This document shows, piece by piece, positions 4,015 to 64,000 of a DNA stretch of 64,000 nucleotides. The translations under genes and the position numbers were made by a program. Position 1 is the first letter of the stretch. Each line of letters begins with the position of its first letter. Location: the NCBI GenBank assembly GCA_043228905.1, contig JBHGNT010000014.1, forward strand, positions 12,276,001-12,340,000, in the 5' to 3' direction. Below the pieces are notes generated by a model. It was not told the origin of the DNA and searched no databases. It worked only from the letters and a program-made list of their open reading frames with translations. The stretch is from Azolla caroliniana. Taxonomy: Eukaryota > Plantae > Polypodiophyta.

Positions 4015-4321
4015 TTATTGTCAATCGAGAGTTCTCACATTTAGAGTTGCAACATTTCTTACTAATCCTTACAAAACAAAGGAGATTGAATTTTGTATAA
4101 AGGCCAATCTACGTACATTCATGCATACCCAATAGAGGGTAACAACAACTCGCTCCTCATTAAATCCTTATTGTCAATCGAGAGTTCTCACATTTAGAGT
4201 TGCAACATTTCTTACTAATCCTTACAAAACAAAGGAGATTGAATTTTGTATAAAGGCCAATCTACGTACATTCATGCATACCCAATAGAGGGTAACAACA
4301 ACTCGCTCCTCATTAAATCCT
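4015..4321. repeat. Perfect 153-bp tandem duplication
   Basis: ttattgtcaatcgagagttctc...ctcattaaatcc at 4015-4167 and again at 4168-4320. Confidence 0.95.
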
Positions 4322-34903: not shown

Positions 34904-36485
34904 TGTCGTGCCTTTCGGCTCCGTATCGTTGCGTGAGGCGGGTGGGAACCGCCGAGGTTTTGGACTAGGAGGAAGAGGAATACAACTTAAGGCTAGTTAT
35001 GAATAGTGGAAAGAGAAGTAAGATAGCAATCTCGTGAATCCCACGAGTTTAGTGTATTTAAAACAATATTTAGATTATAAGAGTAATTTAGATGGCAAAA
35101 TTTGTGAATCCCACGAATATATTAGATTGATCAATCCTTGTATATTAATCAACAACCTTATACATATTTCTCTCCTCCTTATATAAAGATGGAAGAGGCT
35201 AAGCATGGCTTCATGCTTTTTCACCAAAAGTGTCCATGCACACTAAATGTGCATGTGATGCTTTGTCATTTCCTAAGTATAGGGCTCATGCACGCTAGAT
35301 GTGCATGAGTCACTTTTAATGTCACGTGTAAATAAAATATTCACACCCTAAGGAATACATGATTTTTACCTTTTTATAAAGGTATGTGTAAATAAAGGTC
35401 TTATACGTATTAAATCTATATGTATAACACTAAAGATAAGTTATTATAATGGTAAGGTTGAAGTTTATCTACGTGGAGGTGTAGGGTTCAAATCTTGCCC
35501 TATGCATGTGATAAATATTTTGATATATTATTTATTTATTTATATGTATCTAAAATCGGATATATTATTTTATGGTTTTCATGTAGTGTGTGGAATACAC
35601 TACGACAACGTGGCTTGCGGCTTGCTCCCATGTCGCGTATCCGGGAGCCGTGTCGATGGGTCGGTCTTCATGCGCTCCTTTGATGTAGCTCCAATAGCCT
35701 TGTCCGACAAGGTATTGGTGCATCTTGTACTCCCAAGATGCGAAGTTGTTTCAATCCAACTTCTCAGTAGGGAGAGTGCTCCCCATTTGAGTATTCATTA
35801 TGTCAATTTTTCTTCTTCTTCTTCTCTCTTCGAATGCGAGCTATGTAGCGAAGCTACGATAGTGATGAGTTGGTTCTTGGTCGTCATCGTGGAGCACAAC
35901 ACACGATGACGATGAGGCAAATGGGCTAGATCGAACTACCAAATTGCTCTGATACCATGTGAAGAATCAAGATATGGATTCTTGTGAAGCGGAAGAGATA
36001 TAAGTTATGTGTGTGTATGAGAGAGAGAGAGAGTGAGAGAGAGAGACAAGGAATAAGACACAGAGAATACGCAAGGTAAGAGTATATTAACAAAGGAGAA
36101 AGACTCAACATTTTACAAGGTGGGAGGAGGGTGCTTTATATAGTCATCCTCTCTCTCTACATTAACTACAAGACTCATGGAGCATGGGGAATGTGAAAGC
36201 TCATAAGTTATGTGTCATAGAATATGATTCTATGACTCATACTAAATGCTAGAATACAAAGTGGTGACATAATGGTGACTCTTGACCATTGGAGTGTCTA
36301 TTCACTCTCAAGGTGAGTTCACACACTAGACCAAGTTGAGCTTGATTCTACGTGGAGGTGTAGGGTTCGAATCTTGCCCTATGCACGTGATAAATATTTT
36401 GATATATTATTTATTTATTAATATGTATTTAAAATCGGATATATTATTTTATGGTTTTCACGTAGTGTGTGGAATACACTACGAC

Positions 36486-39400
36486 ACTCGCCCCCTCCGA
36501 ACCCGCACATCCTCCGGTATGTGCTGAAGTTCTCGATTCCTCATATCTGTCTTCACCCAAAGCTTCCTCCGATTCTCCCCTTATGTCGACTATGAGTTGT
36601 AATTCACTTTCTTCGCTTCCCGCATCACCGTGGTCTTCGTCCGATTGCTCCTCGTTGTCGGCCTTGGCTTGGATCACATAGGGTTCGTCGTCGGTCTGCT
36701 TCTTGAAAATCTTCACCCGCTTCCCGACTATAGGCACTCGTAGTATTGTTCCATCCAACTCGGACAGTCGGTACGTTCCGTTGTCGAAGACTTTCCGAAC
36801 CTCGTATGGCCCGAACCACCTTTTCGCGAATTTCCGCATCATTGTATGTTGATGGTCCAAACTACTATCATAGACGATCACCCAATCTCCTTCTTCAATC
36901 CTCCTCGGTCGTAGTCGGTGCTTTGTGTCGAACCGGCTTTTGTTCCGGAATCGTGCTTCTTGTTGTCGGCGTATTGCTTCTCCTATGTCTGCCGGTCTTC
37001 CCTCTAGTTGTCGTATCCGGATTGCTAGTAGTTCTTCCCGGCTCATCTCTTCCTTCCATGGTAGCACTGTCCATGTTACGATCGCGGTTTCTGTCGGCAT
37101 TATCGGTGCTTGTCCGGTCATGAGTTCTGCCGGCATGTAACCGGTCGTCCGATCCGCCCATAGTGCATACAGAAGCATCTGCGGCCAGTCCTTCACCTTT
37201 CCATCGCATGCCTTCGCAAGTGCTTTCACGATCGGACTATGTCCTCGTTCGATTTTCCCGTTGGCCTTCGGATTGTATGCCGTTGTCAGCGTTAACCGAA
37301 CTCCGTGTTTGGCGAAGAATCCCCTAGCTTTGTCCGAGTCGAGTTCTCCCCGGTCCGCAATCACTTGTCCTACGCACCCGTACCTGCAAAATACTTCCTC
37401 CAAAAGAAATTGCCATACCGCAGAACACGTTTTCCTCTGAAGCGCTCAACCTTCTACTTGATTCGTGAGATCTTCCCGAGCTAATACCAAGTATTTCTTC
37501 TGTCCGATCCCGGTCGGCATGGCCACTATGTCGACCATCCACTTGAAGTTGATTGTCAGTGAGAATGTCGGATGTAACTCATCTCGATGTCGAACCCCGG
37601 AGTAGACTTGACATTTCTCGCAGCTTTCCGTGAACTCCGCGACATCTTTGTACATTTTCTTCCACCAATATTTTTGCTTGATCTTCACAAATGTTGCCCA
37701 TGTTCCTCGGTGTCCAGCCCAATCGGATTCGTGAAACTCGGACATTATCCGGTTTTGTTGCTCTTTTGTCCCGACTACTCGAAGTGGTATACCATCCGGT
37801 CTGTTCGGCGCCCTCCATATTAATCCGTTTTCCAAGAAGAACTTTTGGACTTGCCTCTTCTTCCTTCGGATCTCGGCTCTTCTTCCTTCATCGTTTGTTG
37901 AATCCTCGGCCTCTTGTAACATTTTCCGATCATCAAGCTTTCTCCCTCGTATTCTTCTTCCCGGAATTCTCGGATTACGTTCACTCGGCATATGTGCTCC
38001 GACGCGAAGTAGTCTTCAGAAACTTCTCCATTATCCGATTCGGTTATGTCGTCTCCGAACCGAGCCCTTGATAACATATCCGCTACCGCGTTGTCCTTCC
38101 CCGAGATGTGTCGAACCTCCGGATTAAGCGACTTGACATATGCAACCCACCTTAGCATAGGTACATCCGGTATCGTACAACACTGCATCAACCCGAGTAT
38201 CGGAAGACAATCCGTCTCGATCACCACTTCGGCTCCGATCAAATAATCCCGATCCGATTTTATCGCCGACACGACTCCCCACAGTTCTCTTTTTACTTGT
38301 GCATATCCACGTTGCCTTTCGTTGAGAACCTTTGCTCCGAATCGGATCGGATACCGCGAACCATCCGAGTCGGCTTGATTGATGACCCACCCGATACCGG
38401 TTGGACTTGTATCAACCGTTACTATGATCGGTCAGTCGTAGCTCGGCTTCTTAAGTGTTTCCGCCCTCCGAAGTGTCTTCTTCAATTTCTTCATGGCTTT
38501 GGTGTGTTCCGGTTTCCATTCGAATTTCTTACCTTTCCGCAACAAGTGGTAGAGCGGGTCCGCTATATGTGCATAGTGCGGAATCCATCTGTGATAGAAT
38601 GCACATGCACCGAGAAACCTTCGGACTTCGGATGTTGACTCGCATACTTCCTCCATAGCTTGAATCGCATCGATCTTTGTTGGTGACGGTCTTCAGCCGT
38701 AGGGCCCACATAGATGTCCGACCACCAATATTTCTTCTTGCCCGAATGCCGATTTCTCCCCGGAAAGTGTTAGGTGCACATCTTCTAGCTTTCACAACAC
38801 TTTCTCGCAATCATGAATATGGTCGACCACGAACTTTCGGCATCCCCGATCATCCATAGTCTCATCTTTTTCTTCTACCGCGCATCCTTTCATGGGAATG
38901 TCATCGAGGAACGGCATCGTTATCTCCGGAATGCAGTCTCGAAGCACCTTGTTCATCGCGTTCATCATATGAGCAACCGAGTTTGTCGCTCCTTGTGGTA
39001 GTGTGCACATTCGGAGTAATCCTATCGGTGTTCGCATGGTTGTGATGTCTCGGCTCTCCACGGCTAGTTGGAATTGTTCATACCCCGAGTATAGGTCTCC
39101 GATGGAGTATATCGCACGACCGGCAAAAGCTTCCGCAAATTCGTCCACTATCGGACCGACTCCCGAGTTCCGGATTGTGACCTTATTCACCGGTTGCAAG
39201 TCTTGGATAAATCGGAATGACCCATTCTTCTTCGGAACCGTAAACCATCGATTTGAGTATGGAGCAGTTGATGGCTCTAGAATCCCCATTGCCACCTTCT
39301 CCTTGAGCAAGTCAATGACTTTCGGAATATGCGCTCGTGGCACTGGAATCGGTTTCAGGTTCCACAATACATGGTCAATCGTGAAGATCACCATCGGTTC

Positions 39401-40012: not shown

Positions 40013-40306
40013 TCAGGTGTCATAACTAGACTCGAACCCATAACCTTTTGTTATACGGGTCGAGACTTTACCATTAGGTTATGAATTGTAATTTGAAGGA
40101 TATTATTTTCATTTAGGTTTTATTGGGAAATTGATGTATATTCCAGATTTCTCTGGAACATTCTAGAAACTTCAGGAGTATTCCTGAAGACACTATAAAA
40201 GAGGTGCAAGGCATTAGTTCGAACCAAATCGGTTCAACGCCAGTCTTAAGCCTTCTAACTACTGTTGTATATCTTCCTTCATATAATACATATATCTTTC
40301 GCATCA

Positions 40307-40350
<44 letters not shown>

Positions 40351-40567
40351 ACTTATTCCTTCTCTCAAAGTTCGACACCTCTCATAGTACTAATCCTTCT
40401 CTGTCTTAGTACTATTCCCCAACAATAGTACTAATCCTTCTTTTAGTACTAATTCCTTCTCTGCCTTAATAGAGTTCCTGACAGTTTGAACCGATTTTTG
40501 GGTGCCTGTCTGGTCTTTTCTCTCCCTCCTTTCCTACTAGTCTCTTATTTCCCTTTTCCTTCATCTC

Positions 40568-41737
40568 ATGGCCACCGTTAGCGCTGAAGAGTATCAATCC
40601 GTTTTCTCGGAATTTCAATGCTTGAAAGAGAAGTTTCATGCTTTGGAACAAGAAAATCAACGCTTGTTGGGGGATCTTCAGCAAATTTCCTTAGAAAAGC
40701 AGCAAACGCAACAACAGCATGGGGAACTTGCGTTACGCGTGCAACAACTCGAAGCAACCATCGTAGCAATGCAACAACAAGGGCACGGAGCACAAGGGAT
40801 TCATAAAGAACCCAAGATTGGCCTTCCCACGAAGTTCGATGGAACGCGATCGCAGTTTAGAGGGTTTCTTAACCAGGTACGGTTAGTTATTCAAATGCAT
40901 CCGTCCCGATATCCCACCGATGCATCACGAGTGGGTTTAGTAGGCACGTTGTTAAATGGCTCAGCATTAGCATGGTTCGCTCCGCTACTAGAAAAGGAAT
41001 CTCCAGTACTAAATAATTTTGAAGAATTCATAAGTGAGTTTAAAGCATGTTTTGGAGATACTGACAGCATAAGGACTGCAATCAACAAAATCCGGCGATT
41101 ACGCCAAGGTGACCGTCCAGCCTCCGCATATGCTGCAGATTTCCGCCTACTCGCCGCCGATATCCCCTGGGATGATCAAGCATTGATGGAGCAGTTCCGC
41201 TATGGTCTACGCAACGATGTCAAGGATTTACTCTTGACTTTCCCTGAAGAGCCAAAATCATTAACAGAAGCAATCAGTCGAGCGGTCAGATGTGACAACC
41301 GCCTCTTCGAGCGACGTTCGGAACGACAATTTCAGATGCCGAGGGCAAGATCCGAGCCTACCTATGCCTCAGTGGTAGCAAAACCTTTTCAAAGGGAGTC
41401 ACATAATGCGCCTCCAGTAAGTACTCCAACTCCAATGGAAATTGACACTACACGTCGTCGTGGGCCGCTATCGGAGGAGGAAAAGCAACGACGCCGAACA
41501 AACCGATTATGCCTTTATTGCGGTGGACCAGGGCATATCGCGATAAACTGTCCCCATAGACCAAGAAGGCAGGTAAACCAAGTCGTTGTTAGTTCTGACT
41601 ATACTAAACCTGAGTCTATTTCAGTAGGAATCTCTGATAGTCCTCATAGTCATAATAGTCCTAATAGTACTAATAGTCCGAATCTCGCAAACAAATTTGA
41701 TGTCCTTAGCCAATTAGAAGAAGAGTTAAACGACTAA
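40568..41737 (+). CDS. gag: Chromovirus Gag (coiled coil, capsid, Zn knuckle), 389 aa
   Basis: PTKFDGTR; LRQG..ASAYAADF; PTPMEID; CLYCGGPGHIAINC. Confidence 0.93.
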   Translation: MATVSAEEYQSVFSEFQCLKEKFHALEQENQRLLGDLQQISLEKQQTQQQHGELALRVQQLEATIVAMQQQGHGAQGIHKEPKIGLPTKFDGTRSQFRGFLNQVRLVIQMHPSRYPTDASRVGLVGTLLNGSALAWFAPLLEKESPVLNNFEEFISEFKACFGDTDSIRTAINKIRRLRQGDRPASAYAADFRLLAADIPWDDQALMEQFRYGLRNDVKDLLLTFPEEPKSLTEAISRAVRCDNRLFERRSERQFQMPRARSEPTYASVVAKPFQRESHNAPPVSTPTPMEIDTTRRRGPLSEEEKQRRRTNRLCLYCGGPGHIAINCPHRPRRQVNQVVVSSDYTKPESISVGISDSPHSHNSPNSTNSPNLANKFDVLSQLEEELND

Positions 41738-41763
41738 GTCCAGCCAAAATAGGAGCCGTTTGG

Positions 41764-44700
41764 TTGGACAGCCCTCGATCTGTGCAGCCCATTAGTGGTT
41801 CCATTCCCTCTAAGCAAGTTAGTGATGTGTTCATAGCCCAAGTAGCAGTTAGAACTAAAAGTACCCCTCCAGTACATACCTTAGCCCTTCTAGATTCCGG
41901 AGCTAATTCTTGCTTCATGGATAGGAATTTTGCCCGAGCTCATCAGATATCTCTCAGAAAGCTCCCATGTCCAGCCTCAGTAGTAGTCATTGATGGTCGT
42001 CCCATTGCTTCTGGTAATATCATAGAAGAGTCGGAACCCGTTAATATTGTCCTAGATAACTTAACATGTGTAGTATCATTTAATATTATTAGTATTCCAG
42101 AACATCCCATAGTTTTAGGATTACCATGGTTCGAGTTACATAACCCAGACATAGATTGGAGGACAAGGGAAATCCGGTTGCGACAAACCCAAGGATCTAC
42201 CCAGAAGGTTGCAACCATTTCGCTACGTCAGTTGCGTGAGGAAGGGCGCAAGGAGGAAATGTTTCTCTTCGCAATATCAATACAACCCTCCAGCACCACC
42301 AAAGAGGAGTCCACCGTTCAACTTCCCGAGAAGTATCGTCAGTATGCTGATGTGTTCGATAAAGTACAAGCCAACACACTTCCTCATCATCGGCCGTACG
42401 ATTGCGCCATCGACTTACAACCGGGAAAAGAGCCGCCATGGGGGCCGATCTACAATTTGTCACCAACCGAGCTAGAAGTCCTTCGAGCCTATATAGAGGA
42501 GAATTTGGAGAACGGTTTCATTCGGCATTCGAAATCTCCAGCCGGCGCACCCATTTTCTTCGTCAAGAAAAAAGATGGCTCGCTTCGACTCGTTGTAGAT
42601 TACCGTGGCTTGAATAAGGTCACAGTAAGAAATAGGTATGCTCTTCCCCTTATCTCAAGTCTTTTAGAACGGATCAACGGTGCCAGGTTCTTCACGAAGA
42701 TCGACTTACGAGGAGCCTATAACCTCGTACGGATCCGACCAGGAGATGAATGGAAGACCGCGTTTCGCACCAGATATGGGCACTTCGAGTATACGGTCAT
42801 GCCGTTCGGACTCACTAATGCGCCGGCAGTCTTCCAGCACATGGCGAATGATATATTTCGAGATCTCTTGGATGATTTTTTGATCATCTATTTGGATGAT
42901 CTACTGGTTTATTCAAAGACCCAAGAAGAACATGATTCTCATGTACTATTAGTACTAAAACGACTTCGAGAACATGGTCTGTATGCAAAGTTAGAGAAAT
43001 GTAGTTTCGGGTGCAACCAAGTGGAATTTCTCGGCTATGTCATCTCCTCAGAAGGCATATCTATGGACCCAGCCAAGGTCAAAACGGTGATAGAATGGCA
43101 CACTCCGCATTCGGTGCGGGATGTGCAATGCTTCCTAGGCTTTGCAAATTTTTACCGGAAGTTCATACAAAATTACTCAAAAATTGTGCTGCCTCTCACA
43201 CAGCTCACCAGGAAGGGACAATCATTCATTTCGTCTAAAGAGAAGGACATGGCTTTCGAGAGTCTTAAGAAGGCGTTTACATCAGCTCCAATTTTAGGTC
43301 ATGTGGATCCGGAAAAACCATTCATTATCGAAGCCGACGCATCGGATTTCGCATTGGGGAGCATTCTGTCACAACAGGGTAACGATGAGAAGCTACATCC
43401 TGTGGCTTTCCACTCCCGTAAGTTTGACGCCGCCGAAATCAACTACGAAATTCATGATAAAGAGCTATTAGCAATAGTTGATTCTTTTATGCAATGGAGG
43501 CATTTCCTGGAGGGATCTCCTCATCAGGTCACTATATTCAGTGACCACAAGAACCTTGCCTACTTTCAAGATGCTCGTGTACTGAATCGACGTCAAGCTC
43601 GGTGGGCCCACTTCCTCACACGCTTCGACTTCAAAATTACATATCGTCCGGGGAAGCACCAAGGGAAGGCAGATGCATTATCACGGCGTTCGTATCTAAC
43701 ACCACGTCCCGGTGAGCCAGCTTTCGATAACCAGAAGCAAGTAATCTTGGGTCCAGCACGACTGCAAGCAGCACAGGTCTTTGACATGCCCGTGGATTCC
43801 GACATTACCAATACTATACGTGAGGACTTGAAGACTGACGCTTTCGCCCAAGCTATACTAGCACAAATTGACCCCTCTCGAGCGTCATGTTCACAATCAC
43901 AATCACCAGGTACGGATTATCGGCAATTCAAATACTGTGATGGATTACTCTTCTTTAAAGAACTTTTGTATGTTCCTAATGGTTCTTGCCGCCTTCGAGT
44001 AGTACAAAATTGCCATGACACATATACAGCAGGACATTTTGGTAGTACTAAAACATTAGATTTAGTACAACGATCATTCTGGTGGCCCCGTATGCGACAA
44101 TTTGTCGAAGATTTTGTTCGGACTTGCGATACATGCTGCAGAGCGAAAATGCCAAGACATCATCCATATGGTTTATTAGAACCATTACCAATTCCAAGCA
44201 AGCCATGGCAATCCATTGCTCTTGACTTCATTACAGATCTTCCAGTCTCTAAGGGATTCAGTGCGATTCTCACAGTGGTGGATCGATATACGAAGATGGC
44301 TCATTTCTTACCATGTACTAAAGAAATATCTAGTGAAGACACCGCCGAAGTTGTCATGCGGGAAGTATGTCGGCATCATGGACTCCCTGATAATATCATC
44401 AGCGATCGTGGACCCCAGTTTGTGTCAAAATTCTGGAAGCACCTTTTTAAAATGCTGAAGGTCACTTGTAACCTCTCCTCCGGCTACTACCCACAAACCG
44501 ACGGTCAAGCCGAACGAACAAATCAAACACTGGAGCAGTATCTGCGGTGCTTTCTCAACTATCATCAGAATGACTGGGCAGATATTCTTCAGTTCGCCGA
44601 ATTTGCCTATAATAACGCTATCCACGCATCGACTAAAGTCACGCCATTCTACGCTTATACGGGATATCATCCCCGGTGGTGTGTCCTTGAAACCCCAGAA

Positions 44701-45321
44701 GTGTCCACAAATCCTTGCGCGGAGGATCGTTTGGAGCGGTTACGCAAGATACAAGCGGATTTATCTACTCAACTCCAGCAAGCTCAACAATCACACAAGG
44801 ACTACGCAGATCGTCATCGACTTCCATCCAGTTTTAACATTGGAGATCGGGTGTGGCTGCTACGACGACACATCAAGACTACTCGCCCATGTGAGAAGTT
44901 GGATTATCGGCGATTAGGTCCTTTCCGTATTATCGGGAAGATTAATGATGTCGCTTTTCATCTCGAGCTACCTCCGCAACTTCGGATACATCCGGTGTTT
45001 CATAGTTCTCTCCTCGAACCCTATCACGAGAGCACTATCCCAGGACGTACTATACAACCACCACCTCCTATCGAGCTCGAAGATGGACCTGAGTATGAGG
45101 TCGCTGCCATCCTCGATTCCAAGATTGTTCGCAACAAGCTCTACTATCTAGTCGATTGGCTAGGATATAGTCCCAGCGAGCGTACTTGGGAACCGATCGA
45201 GAATGTGACCAATGCTCGTGCTCTTCTAGAAGACTTCCATCGACGATATCCCGAGAAACCGGGTCCTCAATCCAAAACGACTCGTGGAACTCGTTGTTTT
45301 AAAGGGGGGATAGTGTCATAA
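41764..45321 (+). CDS. pol: Chromovirus Pol (PR-RT-RH-IN-chromodomain), in the -1 frame relative to gag
   Basis: LLDSGA; YLDD; DASDF; HHCC Zn finger; YPQTDGQAER; GPF; chromodomain EYEVAAILDSK..YLVDWLGY..TWEP. Uninterrupted 1185-codon ORF. Confidence 0.96.
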   Translation: MDSPRSVQPISGSIPSKQVSDVFIAQVAVRTKSTPPVHTLALLDSGANSCFMDRNFARAHQISLRKLPCPASVVVIDGRPIASGNIIEESEPVNIVLDNLTCVVSFNIISIPEHPIVLGLPWFELHNPDIDWRTREIRLRQTQGSTQKVATISLRQLREEGRKEEMFLFAISIQPSSTTKEESTVQLPEKYRQYADVFDKVQANTLPHHRPYDCAIDLQPGKEPPWGPIYNLSPTELEVLRAYIEENLENGFIRHSKSPAGAPIFFVKKKDGSLRLVVDYRGLNKVTVRNRYALPLISSLLERINGARFFTKIDLRGAYNLVRIRPGDEWKTAFRTRYGHFEYTVMPFGLTNAPAVFQHMANDIFRDLLDDFLIIYLDDLLVYSKTQEEHDSHVLLVLKRLREHGLYAKLEKCSFGCNQVEFLGYVISSEGISMDPAKVKTVIEWHTPHSVRDVQCFLGFANFYRKFIQNYSKIVLPLTQLTRKGQSFISSKEKDMAFESLKKAFTSAPILGHVDPEKPFIIEADASDFALGSILSQQGNDEKLHPVAFHSRKFDAAEINYEIHDKELLAIVDSFMQWRHFLEGSPHQVTIFSDHKNLAYFQDARVLNRRQARWAHFLTRFDFKITYRPGKHQGKADALSRRSYLTPRPGEPAFDNQKQVILGPARLQAAQVFDMPVDSDITNTIREDLKTDAFAQAILAQIDPSRASCSQSQSPGTDYRQFKYCDGLLFFKELLYVPNGSCRLRVVQNCHDTYTAGHFGSTKTLDLVQRSFWWPRMRQFVEDFVRTCDTCCRAKMPRHHPYGLLEPLPIPSKPWQSIALDFITDLPVSKGFSAILTVVDRYTKMAHFLPCTKEISSEDTAEVVMREVCRHHGLPDNIISDRGPQFVSKFWKHLFKMLKVTCNLSSGYYPQTDGQAERTNQTLEQYLRCFLNYHQNDWADILQFAEFAYNNAIHASTKVTPFYAYTGYHPRWCVLETPEVSTNPCAEDRLERLRKIQADLSTQLQQAQQSHKDYADRHRLPSSFNIGDRVWLLRRHIKTTRPCEKLDYRRLGPFRIIGKINDVAFHLELPPQLRIHPVFHSSLLEPYHESTIPGRTIQPPPPIELEDGPEYEVAAILDSKIVRNKLYYLVDWLGYSPSERTWEPIENVTNARALLEDFHRRYPEKPGPQSKTTRGTRCFKGGIVS

Positions 45322-45602
45322 CTAGACTCGAACCCATAACCTTTTGTTATACGGGTCGAGACTTTACCATTAGGTTATGAATTGTAATTTGAAGGATATT
45401 ATTTTCATTTAGGTTTTATTGGGAAATTGATGTATATTCCAGATTTCTCTGGAACATTCTAGAAACTTCAGGAGTATTCCTGAAGACACTATAAAAGAGG
45501 CGCAAGGCATTAGTTCGAACCAAATCGGTTCAACGCCAGTCTTAAGCCTTCTAACTACTGTTGTATATCTTCCTTCATATAATACATATATCTTTCGCAT
45601 CA

Positions 45603-45648
<46 letters not shown>

Positions 45649-45786
45649 ACTTATTCCTTCTCTCAAAGTTCGGCACCTCTCATAGTACTAATCCTTCTCT
45701 GTCTTAGTACTATTCCCCAACAATAGTACTAATCCTTCTTTTAGTACTAATTCCTTCTCTGCCTTAATAGAGTTCCTGACATCAGG

Positions 45787-47775: not shown

Positions 47776-49594
47776 CTCCTTGCCACCCGGTTTTTCATGT
47801 CGGGTTCACCAACTGTGTCGTGCCTTTCGGCTCCGTATCGTTGCGTGAGTCGGGTGGGAACCGTCAAGGTTTTGGACTAGGAGGAAGAGGAATACAACTT
47901 AAGGCTAGTTATGAATAGTGGAAAGAGAAGTAAGATAGCAATCTCGTGAATCCCACGAGTTTAGTGTATTTAAAACAATATTTAGATTATAAGAGTAATT
48001 TAGATGGCAAAATTTGTGAATCCCACGAATATATTAGATTGATCAATCCTTGTATATTAATCAACAACCTTATACATATTTCTCTCCTCCTTATATAAAG
48101 ATGGAAGAGGCTAAGCATGGCTTCATGCTTTTTCACCAAAAGTGTCCATGCACACTAAATGTGCATGTGATGCTTTGTCATTTCCTAAGTATAGGGCTCA
48201 TGCACGCTAGATGTGCATGAGTCACTTTTAATGTCACGTGTAAATAAAATATTCACACCCTAAGGAATACATGATTTTTACCTTTTTATAAAGGTATGTG
48301 TAAATAAAGGTCTTATACGTATTAAATCTATATGTATAACACTAAAGATAAGTTATTATAATGGTAAGGTTGAAGTTTATCTACGTGGAGGTGTAGGGTT
48401 CAAATCTTGCCCTATGCATGTGATAAATATTTTGATATATTATTTATTTATTTATATGTATCTAAAATCGGATATATTATTTTATGGTTTTCATGTAGTG
48501 TGTGGAATACACTACGACAACGTGGCTTGCGGCTTGCTCCCATGTCGCGTATCCGGGAGCCGTGTCGATGGGTCGGTCTTCATGCGCTCCTTTGATGTAG
48601 CTCCAATAGCCTTGTCCGACAAGGTATTGGTGCATCTTGTACTCCCAAGATGCGAAGTTGTTTCAATCCAACTTCTCAGTAGGGAGAGTGCTCCCCATTT
48701 GAGTATTCATTATGTCAATTTTTCTTCTTCTTCTTCTCTCTTCGAATGCGAGCTATGTAGCGAAGCTACGATAGTGATGAGTTGGTTCTTGGTCATCATC
48801 GTGGAGCACAACACACGATGACGATGAGGCAAATGGGCTAGATCGAACTACCAAATTGCTCTGATACCATGTGAAGAATCAAGAGATGGATTCTTGTGAA
48901 GCGGAAGAGATATAAGTTATGTGTGTGTATGAGAGAGAGAGAGAGTGAGAGAGAGAGACAAGGAATAAGACACAGAGAATACGCAAGGTAAGAGTATATT
49001 AACAAAGGAGAAAGACTCAACATTTTACAAGGTGGGAGGAGGGTGCTTTATATAGTCATCCTCTCTCTCTACATTAACTACAAGACTCATGGAGCATGGG
49101 GAATGTGAAAGCTCATAAGTTATGTGTCATAGAATATGATTCTATGACTCATGCTAAATGCTAGAATACAAAGTGGTGACATAATGGTGACTCTTGACCG
49201 TTGGAGTGTCTATTCACTCTCAAGGTGAGTTCACACACTAGACCAAGTTGAGCTTGATTCTCAACACTAATTAATCTTACACGTGTATTACGATCATTAA
49301 CAGTGCCGGTTAGTAACCGGTTAAGACCCATTCGATACCACGATTTATCCATATCTCCCCGTACCACCCTTTGGTGAAGTGTTCCATAGGGACATCCTAT
49401 GTTAGGGCTTGTCTAGCCTAATGGATAAAATGTACAGAGTGTTATTATTTTGAATTGAGTTTATGCTTTCTGCTCTCTTTGCCTCTCTCGTGTATTCTCT
49501 ATTCTTAAGCATCCATTAAACCTTCATTCTCAGTTTTATTGCAGCAATCCCGATGGGCCGGTTTATCTACAACCTTCTGCACGCTATTCTTAAC

Positions 49595-54947: not shown

Positions 54948-55701
54948 TTAACATGGTATAGGAGCGCGAGGGTTGAGGACCTCTGCTGCCGACAAACGAT
55001 TTCCAAAGACAAACCCTAACTTTCGAAAAAGCGCAGCCCGAAAAGAAGGAAGATATGGACAGAAGTATAGCAAACTCGCTTCCAACCAAAAAGCTCGACT
55101 GGATGAATTATGCATCCTGGTCGTATAAACTGCACCAGTACCTATTGGGGCACGAATACTGGAGCTACGTTGTCGTGAAGATTTTCGGCAATAGTGTGAA
55201 AATCCCATAAAACGTACGAAATCGAGTATGAATCACATAATACAATAATTGTGAAGATAACATTTTAAATAAATTTAATATCTAAGTGAAAAATGATGGA
55301 GGTTTCGAATGCACTTTATTACACAAGAAACAGACAACTAAATATCAAGATATGAGGGTATAAAGTTTGTGAAAGGAAAAGAGAAAATTGTGAGATATCC
55401 CACATAAGCACGACAAATACGGCTCTCATCATATATAAGGTAGAGCAAAAGATATTATCTTTGTGTCTATGTGTGGAGCATAGAGAGTTCAAGGTAACTT
55501 GAACTAAGAGTGGAGGTGGGCTAGCTACTCGTAAAGGGTTTTGGCCAACCAAAACCGGACCGGTGATGGAGCCGGTGAGACGACGACATCGGGCGGCGGC
55601 AACCGGCGAGGCACCGGTAACCGACGGCATCCGACGAACCGACGTCTGGCGACTAGATAAATAAATATATAAATATATATACATATATACAGATACAAGG
55701 A

Positions 55702-55772
55702 GGGCAAGGAAGGATTCGAACCTTGCACCTCCAAGTTAGGAATCAATTGGCTTACCATTAAGCCATGCTATT
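55702..55772 (-). ncRNA. tRNA-like Pol III module in LTR B (second copy 63854-63924)
   Basis: A box TGGCTTAATGG, B box GGTTCGAATCC 43 nt later; D-stem GCTT/AAGC, T-stem AAGG/CCTT. Acceptor and anticodon stems are non-canonical. Confidence 0.7.
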
Positions 55773-57550
55773 TAGTTGAAATTATATTTCTATCATTGTA
55801 CTTTTACATGCAAATTCTCATACATGAGAGCTAAAATGAGTGACATGGTTATCATGCACCACATGTAATACATAAGCGCCAAATGGCAAACATGCAATTT
55901 ATGTATGTCTTGTACCCTCACATGCATCATATGCATGAGAGCATCTATAAAAGAAGGAAGGGGGAGGAGAAAAAACACGTTTTTTTTTATTATGAAATTA
56001 AGAAGAAATTCATTATCAAATTGATGGTGTAACTTGTTTCTTAAATCTAAAGTTAAAAGTTCAATCAATCTCTCTCAATCGTTTCATCTCAACTTCTCTC
56101 TTTCCCAATCTATCTTAAGTACTTTCTCGCCAAAGCTTGTATCGACTTTGAATCCTTCCGGTCCAAAACCCCGGCGGTTCCGCCTCACGATACGCGCGTA
56201 GTGACGGATCTTCACGACATAATTAAGTGGTGAACCCGACGTGAAAGAGGCGGTAGGAAGGATCAAGTCGAGATTAATACTTGGATATGGCGTCCTCAAG
56301 CAACCAAGCGGGAGAGCTCAAAAGGATGATGCTAATCGTCGAGCAAATGATGAGATCTCGGGACAACGATGCGAGCGTGGAGAAGGCTGTTGATCATGTC
56401 GTAGAGCTCAAGGGCCAACTCGATGGAAGGAACGTTACGAAGTTCCTTGATGCATATAGAAGGGAGATGAATCAGAGGGACGTGTCCGAGGCACGTCAAA
56501 TCACAAGCTTCAAGAGAGTTGTCGCCAACAACATCCAAAGACGCGTCATCGAGCTTCAAGAAGGTAAGACAACATGGTCCGAGTTCAAGAAAACGATACT
56601 AGCGGAGTTCGTGACTGAAGACTCAACGAGGATGACTCGACATGCCCTGATGAAGTGGATAGAGAAGAAGAATAAGAAGATGAGCGTCTCGAGGGTGTAC
56701 GACGAATTTGACCAGATGTTTAGTCGTCTCCCCAATACGGACCAAGTGTTGCTTGAAGAGGACAAGACTTTGTACTTCTTGAAGGCCGTGGACAAAAAGG
56801 ATAGACGGGAGTTGGGGACTCTTCTCGAAGATGATACCCAAGCAAATGGGCTTGTAGCGGACTGGATCGCAGTGAAGCGGGCATGCAATAGGCTCGACAA
56901 GCGTCGCCAATGGGTTGATGACACCGACTTGACGGTGTCGTGCCTTTCGGCTCCGGATCGTTTGCGTGAGTCGGGTGGGAACCACCGGGGTTTTGGACTA
57001 GGAGGAAGAAGAATATGAGATGAGGCTAGTAATGAATAGATTATTAGAAAGAGAGATAGAAATTTCGTGAATCCCACGAGTGTATTGTATTCGATTAATC
57101 AATATTTAGATAAGAATATGTATTTAGATTGAAAGAAAGATATAAGAAACTTGTGAATCCCACAAGTATAGATTATATTATTTTCGTGAATCCCACGATT
57201 ATATTAATCGGTTGGTGTTTTCGGAAATATATCCAATTTCCAAATATTTCACACACTATTACATTGTGCTCCCCATCCTTATGTAGTGATGGGAGAGACT
57301 AAGCATAGCTACATGCTTTTTTTCTAATATGTTCATGCACACTAAATATGCATGTGATGCTTTTCTAATCCTTGCTTTTATTTGCTAAATATAGTGCTCA
57401 TGCACGCTAGATGTGCATGAGTCACTTTTTAGTCGCTTGCGTTTTTCTATAAAATATTCACGCACTCTAAAAATACATGATTTACCTTTTAATAAAGGTA
57501 GGCGCAAATAAAGCACTTATAGTTATTAAATCTATTTATAGAACACTAAA

Positions 57551-57622
57551 GATAAGGTAGCATAATGGTAAAGTTGAGGTTTGGCTACGTGGAGGTACAA
57601 GGTTCAAATCTTGCCCTATGCA
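57551..57622 (+). ncRNA. tRNA-like Pol III module in LTR A2 (also 60357-60428; family A copies 35435-35505, 48347-48417, partial 36350-36385)
   Basis: A box TAGCATAATGG at 57558 and B box GGTTCAAATC at 57601, with the same 43-nt spacing. Confidence 0.65.
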
Positions 57623-57675
57623 CGTGATAAATATCTTGATATATTATTTTATTTATTTATATGTAATTAAATCGG

Positions 57676-59703
57676 TTATATTATTTTTACTTTTTCACGT
57701 AGTGTACGAAATACACTACGACACTCGCCCCCTCCGAACCCGCACATCCTCTGGTATGTGCCGAAGTTGCCGATGCTCGTTGTCTCCCCTTCATCCTCCG
57801 TTTGTCCCGCTATGTCAACTTTGTCTCTCCATTTTGAGTAGACCCATTCTTTCCACCCGAACCATTGTCGCCATCCGATCCACCATATTCTTTGTTCTCT
57901 CTCGTCATATTCTTGGCCCTTGTCATTCGTGGTAGTGTCTTTTACTGGCCTCTTTCTTGTCTTCATCAACCTTGACTTTTTTCCGGATCGCTCTCGTCCG
58001 ATCGACTTTCGGTTTGATCGGCTTCCGATCGGATTCGTATTCGGCCGAATCGGAATCGGTTGTTCGGTTTTGATTGAGTCGGTCTCCTTCCGCCCCGGTT
58101 TCGATCTATCGGTTTCGGTTTCGGTTGGCTTTCTTTTCCTCGTTTTCACCAGCCTCGACCGGTCCAACCTCCGATTGAGTCGGATTAGCTTCTTTCCGTA
58201 TCGGTCTCGTCTGATCGGCTTTCGGCTAGGTCGGCTTCCATCCATATTCGCGTTCGGCCAAGTCAGACTCAGTCGATCGGTTTTGACCGAGTCTACCCCT
58301 TTTCGGGTCGGCTTTCTTTTGGGTTGTCTTTCGGCCGAATCCTCATTCGCCTGGTTCGGCTTTCTTTCGGTTCGTCTTTTGGCCGAATCGTCTTTTACCC
58401 GGTTCGGCTTTCTTTCGGATCGGAATCCCATCCGGATCACCTTCCATCCGAACCGGCTTCCGACTTTACCTTTCTTGCTGCCACCTCCCGTCTCTCCGGT
58501 CTCACGTTGGTTCTCGGACACAACCGCCAAAGTCTCTAGAATTAGTGGGTAGGAATCCTCGGTATTATCATCCTCCGTTGTTTCACCCATAGCCATATTC
58601 TCGGCTATCTCTCCGTCGTATGCATCGACTTCGACCTTTGTTTTCTCTCCGCCACCTTCCGTCTCTTCGGTCTCACGTTGCCTTTCGAACGCAACCACCG
58701 GAGTCTCTAGAATCAGTGGTGGGGAAGTCTCGATATGGCCATCCGTCGTTGATTCGTCCATAGCCACCTTCGATTCGATTTCGTCTTTTGTGGCTACCTC
58801 CTTAATCACATCCGCTTCACACTCTTTATCTGCATCAATTATGCAAACATCTATTATGCTTACCCCTTTTTGACCCGATGTTTCGGACACTTGTATTCCG
58901 AAATCTTCTTCTACACTTGGGTTATCGGCCTTATCCTTCGTCGTTGCTCTTTCGCAAGACAAGAGGGTAGCTTGTTTTACACCCTCTTCCGTCGCACCAT
59001 CATGTTGTATTTCGGCCTTCATATCGGCTCCATCATTTGTCTTCAATCGACCATCCTTCATCGGCCATGTCATTGACAAGATTCTCATCTTCCTCTCATC
59101 ATGTCTCCGGCATACCCTTTGGACTTCGGCCCAATCTTCGGTAAGGCCGTTCGCATCGTCATCATCTTCAAGTTCGATCCCAATGTCCATCCTTTCTTTC
59201 CGATCGATCGATCTTACGAACATTAAGACTTTATCTTCTCCCACCAATCTTCGTTCCCGCTCCGAGAGTCGAGCAAAACGATGCTCGAACTCTAGGAATG
59301 CTTGTGTTGCACTTCGGTGGGTCTTCTCCGATGCCACCCATTCGTCGAATTCTCGCCGATCTTTTCCCTTCGATCTCTTGTAATCATATGCCTCTCGTAA
59401 AGCTTCTTCGAATGATCCCCATGTCGAGTTTTGTTGCCGTATCTTGTGGATTCTCTCTTGTAGCTCATCCGTGGCCACCCGATTGAAGGATGTCACTTGC
59501 AATCCTTCCGGTATCCCACATCGTATCATCTCCGCCTTGTAGTCATGTAGATAGCGTGACAGATCGTTTCCGTTGAATTGTCCGTTTCGTTGTACGAGCC
59601 GCTTTACTACCGCCGTGATCTCCGACATCGCTCGTTGTTCTTGTAGCATCCGTTCGAACATCATCATCATCGTTATGCTCATCGCCTCTTGTTGATTCTC
59701 CAT
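57676..59703 (-). CDS. Gag-derived protein (~675 aa) with acidic and K/R-rich repetitive extensions
   Basis: Open frame from MENQQEAMS (homologous to family A gag) to a stop inside the 3' LTR. Confidence 0.75.
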   Translation of the reverse strand: MENQQEAMSITMMMMFERMLQEQRAMSEITAVVKRLVQRNGQFNGNDLSRYLHDYKAEMIRCGIPEGLQVTSFNRVATDELQERIHKIRQQNSTWGSFEEALREAYDYKRSKGKDRREFDEWVASEKTHRSATQAFLEFEHRFARLSERERRLVGEDKVLMFVRSIDRKERMDIGIELEDDDDANGLTEDWAEVQRVCRRHDERKMRILSMTWPMKDGRLKTNDGADMKAEIQHDGATEEGVKQATLLSCERATTKDKADNPSVEEDFGIQVSETSGQKGVSIIDVCIIDADKECEADVIKEVATKDEIESKVAMDESTTDGHIETSPPLILETPVVAFERQRETEETEGGGEKTKVEVDAYDGEIAENMAMGETTEDDNTEDSYPLILETLAVVSENQRETGETGGGSKKGKVGSRFGWKVIRMGFRSERKPNRVKDDSAKRRTERKPNQANEDSAERQPKRKPTRKGVDSVKTDRLSLTWPNANMDGSRPSRKPIRRDRYGKKLIRLNRRLDRSRLVKTRKRKPTETETDRSKPGRKETDSIKTEQPIPIRPNTNPIGSRSNRKSIGRERSGKKSRLMKTRKRPVKDTTTNDKGQEYDEREQRIWWIGWRQWFGWKEWVYSKWRDKVDIAGQTEDEGETTSIGNFGTYQRMCGFGGGECRSVFRTLREKVKII

Positions 59704-62070
59704 CTCCTTGCCACCCGCCTTCACGTCGGGTTCACCAACTGTGTCGTGCCTTTCGGCTCCGGATCGTTTGCGTGAGTCGGGTGGGAACCACCGGGGTTTT
59801 GGACTAGGAGGAAGAAGAATATGAGATGAGGCTAGTAATGAATAGATTATTAGAAAGAGAGATAGAAATTTCGTGAATCCCACGAGTGTATTGTATTCGA
59901 TTAATCAATATTTAGATAAGAATATGTATTTAGATTGAAAGAAAGATATAAGAAACTTGTGAATCCCACAAGTATAGATTATATTATTTTCGTGAATCCC
60001 ACGATTATATTAATCGGTTGGTGTTTTCGGAAATATATCCAATTTCCAAATATTTCACACACTATTACATTGTGCTCCCCATCCTTATGTAGTGATGGGA
60101 GAGACTAAGCATAGCTACATGCTTTTTTTCTAATATGTTCATGCACACTAAATATGCATGTGATGCTTTTCTAATCCTTGCTTTTATTTGCTAAATATAG
60201 TGCTCATGCACGCTAGATGTGCATGAGTCACTTTTTAGTCGCTTGCGTTTTTCTATAAAATATTCACGCACTCTAAAAATACATGATTTACCTTTTAATA
60301 AAGGTAGGCGCAAATAAAGCACTTATAGTTATTAAATCTATTTATAGAACACTAAAGATAAGGTAGCATAATGGTAAAGTTGAGGTTTGGCTACGTGGAG
60401 GTACAAGGTTCAAATCTTGCCCTATGCACGTGATAAATATCTTGATATATTATTTTATTTATTTATATGTAATTAAATCGGTTATATTATTTTTACTTTT
60501 TCACGTAGTGTACGAAATACACTACGACAACGGGACCGACTACCACGGAGAAAGCAAGACCGCCGAAAGTAGCTGAGCCGCCAAGACAAAGTAACGTGGA
60601 AGAAAAGAAGATTGATGACGACATCATTGAAGAGCTAGCAAAGAAGTTTGAGAAGGTCACGCTAGCCAACATGAATCGTCGGGGCCCTAAGGGAAAAGAA
60701 CCCTTTAGATGCGTGTGGTGCGATAGCATGGACCACATGAGAAGGGATTGTGCGAGCCTTTGAGAGGCGATTCGACAAAATATCGTATACATAGAGGACA
60801 ACATGATCTGCTCAAGCGAGACTATAAGACCCCTACGGGTGAATTTCGGAAGAGGAGGAATGAAGAAATCTATGGAGGATGCCGATGCGACTCATGTGGA
60901 TGCGATGCACTATGCTGCGTCGGCCGGAATAAGAGTCGGGAAAGACAAGACTGAAGCTGCTAGAGCGGGAGCAAAGTTTTGGACTTCCGTTCTCGAATAT
61001 GAGAAGAAGGGAAAAGTCACATCGAACGAGGTAGAGCTTGCGGACCGAAGCGTGCAAAGCATAACCGGGTGGTCGGATCCGGTGGACGAGAACACCATAC
61101 TCGCAGAGGTGATGTGTGACAACCACGAGGTGTTCGTCGAAGAAAAGAGAAAGAGAATAGAAGAGCAAGGCCCATCAAAAAGACATGAAACAAGGAACGC
61201 GAAAAAGAAGGACGATGCGGAGACGAGTCGACCTTTACAAACAGAGGAACGAGAATCAAGCCGAAAAGGGGAGCCGAGCATACGAGTTGAAGAAATGGTT
61301 CGGCCCGTGAAGGTTGGTGTCGAAGACCCCGCTTGGAGGACAAGGACTATACCTACCTATAAGCTAAGGTCGGACATAGAGCAGACGACGGACCTAAAGA
61401 AGATTCTCGAAGAACGAGTTCTTGATAGCCACGTAACTTTGTCCTTGAGGGAATTGCTTGGCATTACGAAGGAGTTCCATGACACGATTGTGGACCTTGT
61501 AAAGAGAAAGAGACAACAATCGGACGAGGAAGAAGAGAAGCCGCAAAAAGCAAAAACGAATGCCATAACGATGGCAAGAGACGAAATCGATGAAGATATG
61601 GTGGACAGCCACTACACTCGACCTCATTGGGCACGAGCGACAACGGAGACGCCGGTGAAGATCGGGGAGAAGAAAGAGACCGTGGTAGCCTTGATCGACC
61701 ACGGCTCAGAGATTAACCTCATGTCAACCGACTTCTACAAAAAAGGAAGGTGGCCAATTAATACAAACCACGGATAGAAGATTCGCGCGGCAACAAAGTC
61801 TACGGAGGACTTGTATGGAGGTTGTCCCAATTTCAAAGTCACGATCGGGGATGTGGAGATGGATCAACACTTCTTCATACAAGAATCGGCGTCGCATCCT
61901 GTCATCCTAGGGCAACCTTATATCACATCATCTCGGATGGAGACCAAAGTGTTCGATAATGGAGCAGCCTTCGCACGAATAAAGAGTCTTGACAACCAAA
62001 GATTGGTCAAATTCCTAACGGTGCGAGCCAATCATGAAAGGAATCGAGATAGTCTCGGAGGCGAATCCTC

Positions 62071-63687
62071 GGATTTTTAGAGCGGACTATTGAAGCATGG
62101 GGCACAAATAGTCCGAGCAATCACAAGACCCCACAAGAAAGAAGAGTGCGTGGATTGCAAGGAGAAGCAACATGTGTCACACCTAGTGGCGCATGTAAAC
62201 TAGTACTACCCGACAAGAAGCACAAGCACCGGATACAAGAATTCGAGAAGATGCTGAAAGAAGAGAACATAATAGAAGAAGGAGAGTTCGTGACTCATAT
62301 TATGGAAGAAGCCTCATTTCACGACACCATCGGCGAAATCGAGGATGTCGTGGACTTGAGCTATCTTCACAACCAACGCGTGATTTCGGTTAACTCCGTC
62401 AACATGTACGCTATCATCGATGAATACCGTCGTGGCATCTCGATGAAGGAAGCTGACATCAACACGAAATATAAAACGATGGATAAGAAGATCAAGCCAG
62501 TTGCGGTTCCGCTACCGGAAGATAGCTGGCAAAAGATGAAGGAAGTCGCTAATGATCCAAGCTTAAGAGATCCGAAGAAGATAGGTCATGTCTTCACCAA
62601 AGAGACGAAGGGGAAGCTACGAGTTGGAAAGGAGGATTTCCTTCTCCCTGAAGAGGAGCGAATGTTTCGCGATATGCTTGAGAGACATGGGAAGGCTTTC
62701 ACATTCTTCCCACGAGAAATTGGATGCGCCGACCCAAAGGTAATAGAGCCGATGGTGATCTTCACGGTGCCTCATGTGCCTTGGAATTTGAAACCGATAC
62801 CGGTTTCGAGAACACACCTTCCGAAGCAGATCGAGCTCTTAAAGGAGAAGGTGAGTATGGGAATTCTGGAACCGTCGAATGCTCCTTATTCCAATAGGTG
62901 GTTCACGGTGCCGAAGAAGAATGGATCATTGCGATTCATCCAAGATCTTCAACCCGTCAACAAGGTGACAATTCGAAATGCCGGAATCGGTCCGAGCGTG
63001 GACGAATTTGCCGAAGCGTTTGCGGGCCGGTCCATCTACTCCATTGGCGATCTCTACTCCGGATATGACCAATTCCAATTGGCGATCGATAGTCAGGACA
63101 TTACAACCATGAGGACTCCGATCGGGCTTGTGCGGATGTGTACCTTACCCCAAGGCGCAACGAACTCTGTGGCTCATATGGGGAATGCCATGAATAAAGT
63201 CTTGAAGGATTGCATCCCGAACATCACGATGCCATTCTTGGATGATATTCCGATAAAAGGATGTTCGGATGAGGAGAAAAATGAATCGAAAGATAAGGAA
63301 GGTTGTAGAAAGTTCATTGCGGATCATATGAAAGATTGCGAGAAGGTGCTTCAAAGGCTCGAAGATGCGAATTTGACATTTTCGGGAGAAAAATCCGCAT
63401 TCGGGCAACCGGAGATCTTGGTGGTACATCACTTGTGTGGAGCATACGGCTGGAAGCCCTCGCCATCCAAAGTGAACGCAATCCAAGACATGAAAGAAGA
63501 ATGCGTGCGAAGACCTGAAGAAGAAGCGCGAAAGATGATGGAGGCAGCCCGAGTAAAGAGCAAAGTTCGGTTCGACAACACGCATCGACTTCGTCCCGAG
63601 AAGATTGAAGAAGGGGATTGGGTTTTGGTTTACGACAACACTCTTGACAATCAACACAGTACAACAAGGAAGTTCGCAAGAAGATGA
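62071..63687 (+). pseudogene. Family B RT fused to the integrase C-terminus by deletion
   Basis: RT up to KPSPSKVNAIQDMKEEC, then directly ..RFDNTHRLRPEKIEEGDWVLVYD. Confidence 0.85.
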
Positions 63688-64000
63688 AGCTGGTGAGACG
63701 ACGGCATCCGGCGGCAACCGGCGACGGATGCCGTCGCCGGTGAGACGACGGCATCCAGCGAGGCACCGGTAACCGACGACATCCGACGAACCGGCGTCCG
63801 GAGACTAGATAAATAAATATATAAATATATATACATATATACATATACAAGAAGGGCAAGGAAGGATTCGAACCTTGCACCTCCAAGTTAAGAATCAATT
63901 GGCTTACCATTAAGCCATGCTATTTAGTTGAAATTATATTTCTATCATTGGCTTAAGTTGTATTCCTCTTCCTCCTAGTCAAAAACCTCGGCAGTTCCCA

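Follow-up and report, generated by a model that had tools for sequence, protein, structure and literature searches.

A backward tRNA-derived A/B-box unit in the LTRs of coding Gypsy retrotransposons of two distant lineages in Azolla caroliniana

The DNA analysed here (the window) is a stretch of 64,000 nucleotides from Azolla caroliniana, contig JBHGNT010000014.1, and holds a nest of LTR retrotransposons adjoining a plant receptor-kinase gene (Table 1). Both strands of the whole window were scanned for A-box/B-box pairs with at most one mismatch, using a consensus for the two boxes. Eight such near-perfect sites were detected. All eight lie inside Gypsy LTRs and run antisense to the element, as judged from the strands of the primer-binding sites (PBS) and open reading frames, and the distance from A-box start to B-box start is 43 nt in every one of them. 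Thirty block-wise dinucleotide shuffles of the window gave a mean of 0.07 sites and a maximum of one. Six of the sites belong to three families of Phygy-type elements and the remaining two to a chromovirus.

Table 1. Retrotransposon features of the window and the A/B-box modules that they carry (positions within the 64-kb stretch).
Feature	Position	Strand	Remarks
Phygy element D (internal control)	22568..28389	+	shares the Phygy PBS and NCGN TSD; module in neither LTR
Family A LTR	34904..35607	-	TSD ACGT; type I module on + strand, A box 35442 (one mismatch), B box 35485
Truncated 3' LTR of element A	36347..36486	-	only the B-box half of the module left (B box from 36364, + strand)
5' LTR, Tcn1-like chromovirus	40017..40483	+	antisense module at extreme 5' end of U3: A box 40071-40081, B box 40028-40038; TATA 40193
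Chromovirus pol	41710..45318	+	open, 1203 aa: protease, RT, RNase H, integrase, chromodomain
3' LTR, chromovirus	45313..45781	+	antisense module as in 5' LTR (B box 45334, minus); 5-bp TSD TCAGG
5' LTR of element A	47816..48519	-	type I module, A box 48354 (one mismatch), B box 48397; PBS 47796-47811
5' LTR, Phygy element B	55171..56219	+	11-bp terminal inverted repeat, ACGT 5' flank, TATA ~180 nt from A box
Type II module, LTR B	55702..55772	-	A box 55755-55765, B box 55712-55722, 43-nt spacing; predicted hairpin around B box
PBS of element B	56228..56245	+	
gag-pol of element B	56278..63684	+	split by element A2; truncated after RT
3' LTR of element A2	56936..57723	-	type I module on + strand: A box 57558-57568, B box from 57601; 4-bp TSD ACGG
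5' LTR of element A2	59742..60529	-	module A box 60364-60374, B box from 60407 (+ strand)
Type II module, second copy	63854..63924	-	A box 63907-63917, B box 63864-63874; in remnant of B's 3' LTR

The elements A, A2, B and D have one common PBS, of which four copies were found; in element B we take it to be of the tRNA-Trp type. A tRNA-Trp gene search returned 31 loci with no tRNA among them. The target-site duplications ACGT, ACGG and GCGT all have the 4-bp NCGN form, and, among named sequences, the RT homologs belong to liverworts and a fern (Riccia, Calypogeia and Adiantum, ~43-80% identity). The two LTRs of A2, an element with a long gag-type ORF and no pol, are identical over 788/788 positions, and the family A LTRs agree at 701/704. 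The 3' LTR of B survives as a remnant of ~260 nt (about 63690-63950), fused to an A-type U5 at 63952. Element D served as an internal control, and the best module score in its LTRs was 5-6 mismatches; the two Copia families of the window also lack the module. A 4-bp NCGN duplication and, in 81%, a tRNA-Trp PBS are given as marks of Phygy in the available text of PMC6317226. The elements A, A2, B and D resemble Phygy in the duplications and putatively in the Trp type of the PBS, and no chromodomain was seen. In the same portion of PMC6317226 an LTR module is not mentioned and the clade is described from Physcomitrella patens only.

The chromovirus (40017-45781) is a complete element whose LTRs are identical at 465/467 positions, and its module lies 22 nt from the LTR 5' end in both of them. 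Its RT shares only 26% identity with the RT of element B. As in Tcn1, a chromodomain follows the integrase, a tRNA PBS is absent and a self-priming signature is found; the sequence after the 5' LTR has a 12-nt match to the LTR just past the TATA box, and the element appears to be self-priming. A second LTR of this kind, in L026, is 78% alike over 152 nt and holds perfect boxes at 44 nt. The module is absent from 10/10 distant chromoviruses (40-52% identity). According to the accessible parts of PMC2864245 and PMC6317226, Tcn1 chromoviruses have a chromodomain with aromatic cage residues, no tRNA PBS, predicted self-priming, LTRs of ~440-470 bp and a 5-bp TSD, as does the element here, but a tRNA-like unit in their LTRs was not found described in those parts.

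Common to all module types are both boxes, the distance between them, the backward direction and a location 110-260 nt upstream of the TATA box. The distance from A box to TATA is 180 nt in B, 256 nt in A and 112 nt in the chromovirus; in A2 the TATA is degenerate at the aligned position. The LTRs that bear modules are 467-1150 bp long and belong to elements of at least 3.6 kb with gag or gag-pol ORFs and a TATA box. The first-pass annotation had placed six modules in the Phygy-type LTRs, all in U3, antisense and with 43-nt spacing, and the sequences and positions that it gave for B, A2 and A were confirmed, together with the decayed A box of family A (a single mismatch in each of the two LTRs concerned). 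All six copies are present. However, they represent three families rather than six independent cases, since the LTR pairs are identical or nearly so and the copy at 63.9 kb is a remnant of B's own 3' LTR. The annotation had also passed over the chromovirus modules and the fourth Phygy family, which has no module.

Over 13 modules, pairing was found at 31/91 positions of the acceptor stem (37 by chance), 27/52 of the D stem (21) and 32/65 of the anticodon stem (26). Only the T stem was clearly above chance (46/65 against 27), which is in part forced by the B box. ARAGORN predicted 0 tRNA genes. Rfam gave no tRNA match in the window, where permissive E-values added only AT-repeat noise, and no 5S rRNA match; the best Rfam tRNA score, 19.1 bits for one L074 copy, is below the cut-off of 29. 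The module was thus rejected as a functional tRNA gene. An origin from the primer tRNA was likewise unsupported, as the 3' parts of the modules match the 3' part of the primer, read from the PBS, at just 3-8/15 positions.

No terminator is common to the modules; the first T4 comes 6-211 nt past the B box, where the LTR contains one at all. It is found at 6-36 nt in A, A2, L015, L026A, L044, L066, L069 and L074. B, L033 and L002 have no T4 for 118-211 nt, and the chromovirus LTR, which ends 22 nt from the B box, has none. The idea of a defined antisense RNA, which had been put forward from the first reading, is weakened by this lack of a common terminator. No fold is common to all module types either. 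In types I and II a hairpin is predicted around the B box, with two-sided changes at 5/14 predicted pairs, a sign that the module may act as RNA or as a single strand.

The unit appears to be an integral part of the LTR. Free SINE-like copies outside LTRs were found neither in the 64-kb window nor in 203 kb of LTR-enriched loci, in line with the earlier view of a tRNA-derived A/B unit within the LTR rather than a separate SINE. In organism A, the summed read depth of the module bin equalled that of the LTR flanks without excess; although depth is no copy number, this speaks against free SINE copies in large numbers. The B-module bin had a lower summed depth than the neighbouring LTR bins in two related organisms. 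In a run guessed to be RNA, two low-depth contigs covered module B and one of them continued into the LTR on both sides, which is uninformative on a short transcript.

Relatives were sampled from metagenome contigs by LTR end and PBS, blind to the module. This PBS-anchored scan yielded 122 loci from 24/64 parts of the collection, 80 of them with long flanks. Twenty-seven LTRs with an NCGN or polypurine-tract (PPT) start were accepted as full, which together with the four window families made 31 LTRs in 14 clusters. The antisense module was present in 7/31 full Phygy LTRs and 4/14 clusters; the 24 LTRs without it include young families and the closest gag relatives of B. It was also present in the partial LTRs L033, L066 and L026, and in a decayed state in L015, which fails the TSD/PPT start filter and stands outside the 31. 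The PBS-anchored loci, 203,505 bases altogether, contained 10 sites with no more than one mismatch; all 10 lie in LTRs and 9 are antisense, and the spacing is 43 nt in 8 and 44 nt in 2. Three types of module, at minimum, can be told apart: I/II (A, A2, B, L002 and L066), III (L069 and L074, each with two tandem copies) and the chromovirus type. Types I and II share 17-19 of the 32 inter-box letters, and the chromovirus type shares 8-15/32 with the others.

On a gag tree of 30 rows, each with at least 110 aligned residues, the presence and absence of the module require at least two changes. A2 and B share 31% gag identity, and the sisters of B, at 56-57%, have no module. The U3 segments are mosaic between families. 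The gag tree and the U3 mosaicism together suggest one of two histories: repeated gain of the module with exchange between lines, or an old origin followed by frequent loss.

We also compared the divergence of the boxes with that of their surroundings. In six within-family pairs, changed sites amounted to 10/126 (0.079) in the boxes, 28/192 (0.146) between the boxes and 422/2896 (0.146) in the rest of the LTR, so that divergence in the boxes runs at roughly half the rate of the remaining LTR. The statistics are weak (Fisher p 0.04 against the rest of the LTR and 0.08 against the inter-box region). The six pairs lack independence, and it was by the boxes that modules were identified in the first place. 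For the strictly constrained box positions alone, 5/66 were changed (p 0.15 against the LTR). Three further pairs that reuse sequences pointed in the same direction and were left out of the pool.

In four public runs, the variants listed for module B occupied 14/19 inter-box, 14/33 upstream-flank and 3/11 A-box positions, in a table of high-copy variants that appears to omit ~31 nt at each end, the B box included (the strong variant at 55811 is absent). Among these listed variants, all 3 in the A box fall at degenerate positions, and 0/7 constrained A-box positions vary against 14/19 between the boxes (p 0.001). Compared with the upstream flank, the A-box core gave p 0.07. Between types, the 32-nt inter-box region shares just 8-19 letters, and the boxes and their spacing persist.

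The boxes are perfect in A2, B, L033, L074 and one L026 copy. At the B-box CpG, a change to the consensus-compatible CA is seen in A, A2, L002, L066, L015 and both copies of L069 and L074, whereas a box-breaking TG has arisen only in L044 and one L026 copy. Damaged boxes occur in A (both LTRs), L015, L044, L069 and one L026 copy, and family A has transposed while carrying its damaged A box in both LTRs. These results favour a constraint on the boxes, short of proof. The earlier observation that the boxes are kept better than the stems holds and extends to the flanks, with acceptor pairing at chance level and the boxes changing less than the rest of the LTR.

The unit had been called a tRNA-type analogue of Cassandra that was undescribed. 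Such an analogue has in fact been published as Helenus (TRIMp3; Kojima 2024, PMC10886601). According to the accessible part of that paper, Helenus has tRNA-derived sequence in its LTRs with conserved A and B boxes and a non-functional cloverleaf, as here; an origin by SINE or tRNA insertion is proposed, and its function is a proposal only. Helenus elements are non-coding and 311-1263 bp long, unlike the elements here of at least 3.6 kb with gag or gag-pol. The unit is in sense in the Helenus LTR consensus entries examined but antisense in 8/8 window sites and 9/10 locus sites here. The sole plant entry given there, from Selaginella, has a 120-bp LTR, a 5-bp TSD and a sense unit. Helenus is thought to make its own RNA from the tRNA promoter, whereas the elements here keep a Pol II TATA box (PMC10886601). 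Because the unit there is in sense in the entries examined and would transcribe the element, and here lies antisense beside the TATA box, Helenus is a poor model for the present case. What is new relative to Helenus is a backward tRNA-derived unit in coding, full-size Gypsy elements of two distant lineages.

The Cassandra and Ajax TRIMs also carry a Pol III internal promoter in both LTRs, but it is 5S-derived and the elements are non-autonomous; transcription of Cassandra starts within the 5S part and copies the element (PMC10886601 and PMC10946416, available portions). Antisense A/B-box units in Phygy or Tcn1 LTRs were not found described in the accessible literature, PMC7466625, PMC2864245 and PMC10946416 among it; subscription papers, Repbase entries and bioRxiv supplements may contain such a description. 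"Not a few" Repbase LTRs are said to resemble part of a tRNA, with only TRIMs studied (PMC10886601, in part), and similar cases may sit undescribed in Repbase.

For the function of the unit, the barrier idea is our best guess, and overall the first-pass interpretation is partly supported. We tentatively propose that the antisense A/B unit in U3 serves as a docking site for TFIIIC on the DNA and so helps to protect the adjoining Pol II promoter of the LTR from silencing, a reading to which we give somewhat less than even odds. A tRNA or SINE-head sequence would have been captured more than once, and would then have spread between Phygy families by U3 recombination or been lost in many lines. 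TFIIIC would bind the A/B-box unit and the element would gain a benefit from it. In the antisense orientation, the established Pol III geometry would place TFIIIB on that flank of the A box which faces the TATA, and a transcribing Pol III would head away from the LTR promoter and not cross it. The unit is not obligatory, and in some lines it is decaying. The absence of a shared fold and of a shared terminator suggests that a DNA site for TFIIIC fits better than an RNA product. In yeast, TFIIIB and TFIIIC limit the spreading of Sir, and for yeast and animal tDNA/TFIIIC barriers A/B-box DNA is likewise proposed to act by factor binding and not by an RNA product (PMC9540200, available text). Those barriers are host loci, whereas the putative barrier here is LTR-borne. 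No plant example of a TFIIIC barrier was found in the accessible part of the same review (PMC9540200).

The modules may instead be neutral relics: fragments of tRNAs or SINE heads would have entered U3 a few times and been carried passively, and backward ones would survive because forward ones would disturb the LTR promoter. The patchy distribution (7/31 full LTRs), the damaged boxes in A, L015, L044 and L069, the modest conservation statistics and the mosaic U3 all agree with this. Primer-tRNA read-through is moreover a documented source of plus-strand tRNA inserts in HIV-1 proviruses (PMC12657518, in part), and since it inserts the tRNA in the plus strand, antisense capture would need no selection. 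This process could explain antisense capture in the tRNA-primed lines, but not in the self-priming chromovirus, where the same arrangement is found at an RT identity of 26%. The boxes and their 43-44-nt spacing have also persisted where the inter-box sequence is near-random between types and the LTRs are full of indels, and a tandem duplication has kept both copies. We consider passive carriage somewhat unlikely.

Two further alternatives place the function in RNA, and the predicted type I/II hairpin with its two-sided changes keeps both alive. In the first, the module would be a Pol III unit that is transcribed outward, and its short antisense RNA or the transcription itself would regulate the element, or would feed or decoy small-RNA silencing; we regard this as improbable. 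The perfect boxes, the T4 that follows the B box at 6-36 nt in eight modules and the conserved hairpin speak for it; the long T4-free stretches in B, L033 and L002, the chromovirus LTR without any T4 and the lack of a fold common to the types speak against it. Alternatively, the 3' U3 of the genomic RNA, complementary in tRNA register to the D and T loops of a tRNA, would anneal the primer or a packaged tRNA for strand transfer or packaging, for which HIV-1 U3 and the split primer site of Ty3 are precedents. Such annealing would account directly for the antisense orientation and the fixed tRNA-like spacing, the tolerated box changes would presumably also permit G-U pairs, and the hairpin conservation agrees with it. 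But the chromovirus appears self-priming yet has the module, one primer tRNA cannot match all three types, and the match to the primer 3' part is poor. We hold it to be quite improbable.

The recurrence of the unit in two Gypsy lineages with a fixed geometry is surprising. It is possible, though doubtful, that autonomous Gypsy elements of two deep lineages in seed-free plants convergently and repeatedly captured tRNA promoters and fixed them outward in U3 as portable TFIIIC insulators of their own Pol II promoters. The further suggestion that these would be natural plant tDNA-type barriers, in very many copies per genome and built from host Pol III cis-elements, we put forward with the same doubt. 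If TFIIIC binds, Pol III promoters that face outward are being scattered over the genome by a high-copy Gypsy family, and tDNA-type barriers could be tested directly in plants with controls built in, namely the sister families and decayed copies without boxes. The capture of Pol III promoters would then extend from non-coding mini-elements, where it drives the element RNA, to coding elements, where it cannot. Even as a mere relic, the unit would still be a record of repeated tRNA capture into LTRs.

Several minor sites were found besides. A two-mismatch match that coincides with the PBS, at 56260 and in several loci, is artefactual, the PBS being tRNA-related. L003 was dropped as an A-type LTR without module, as its 5' end has neither TSD nor PPT. 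Scans of viral contigs gave one locus for the PBS and 0 for the module, and 26 loci from a scan of prokaryote genomes were taken as chance or contaminant matches. L062 has a two-mismatch site at 45 nt, which may be chance.

The 3' half of the module, the tRNA-like A-box/B-box unit, in the LTRs of the Tcn1-like chromovirus closely resembles a B-box-like motif carried in sense orientation by a Phygy-type relative, L046, one of the loci fetched from metagenome contigs by LTR end and PBS. This likeness hints that the L046 motif and the chromovirus module may have a common dispersed source. The L046 LTR contains such sense motifs 359 and 208 nt from its 3' end, downstream of the TATA. Sense B-box-like motifs downstream of the TATA were also observed in L036, L069 and L074, about 300 nt from the LTR 3' end, and a good A box was mostly absent beside the motifs of all four loci.

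In the window, an A-type LTR together with a Copia leader and LTR forms a 1446-bp block present twice at 99.5%, and the 3' LTR of element A is truncated within its module; this arrangement is probably a recombination product. In element B, a pol deletion runs into the 3' LTR, which is chimeric and changes to an A-type U5. Element A2, in which the two LTRs do not differ and a long ORF of gag type stands without pol, is a non-autonomous derivative that moved very recently.

Coordinates of the features (window unless stated)
Feature	Position
Duplicated block, two copies	34904-36349; 47816-49261
Truncation point, element A 3' LTR	36347
Chimeric 3' LTR region of element B	63690-64000
Change to A-type U5	63952
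Element A2	56936-60529
Perfect 154-bp inverted repeat (hairpin), beyond annotated elements	4015-4321
tRNA-Arg gene	L047 1150-1224

At eight metagenome loci (L006, L019, L020, L021, L041, L044, L053 and L058), a polypurine tract precedes the LTR and a PBS follows it, an order that reflects either tandem elements with a common LTR or collapsed assemblies. The final 500 nt of the L058 Phygy LTR contain repeated telomere-like AAACCCTAA motifs. In a single case, L047, the start of a Phygy LTR without the module has a genuine tRNA-Arg gene ~200 nt away, which is directed away from the LTR.
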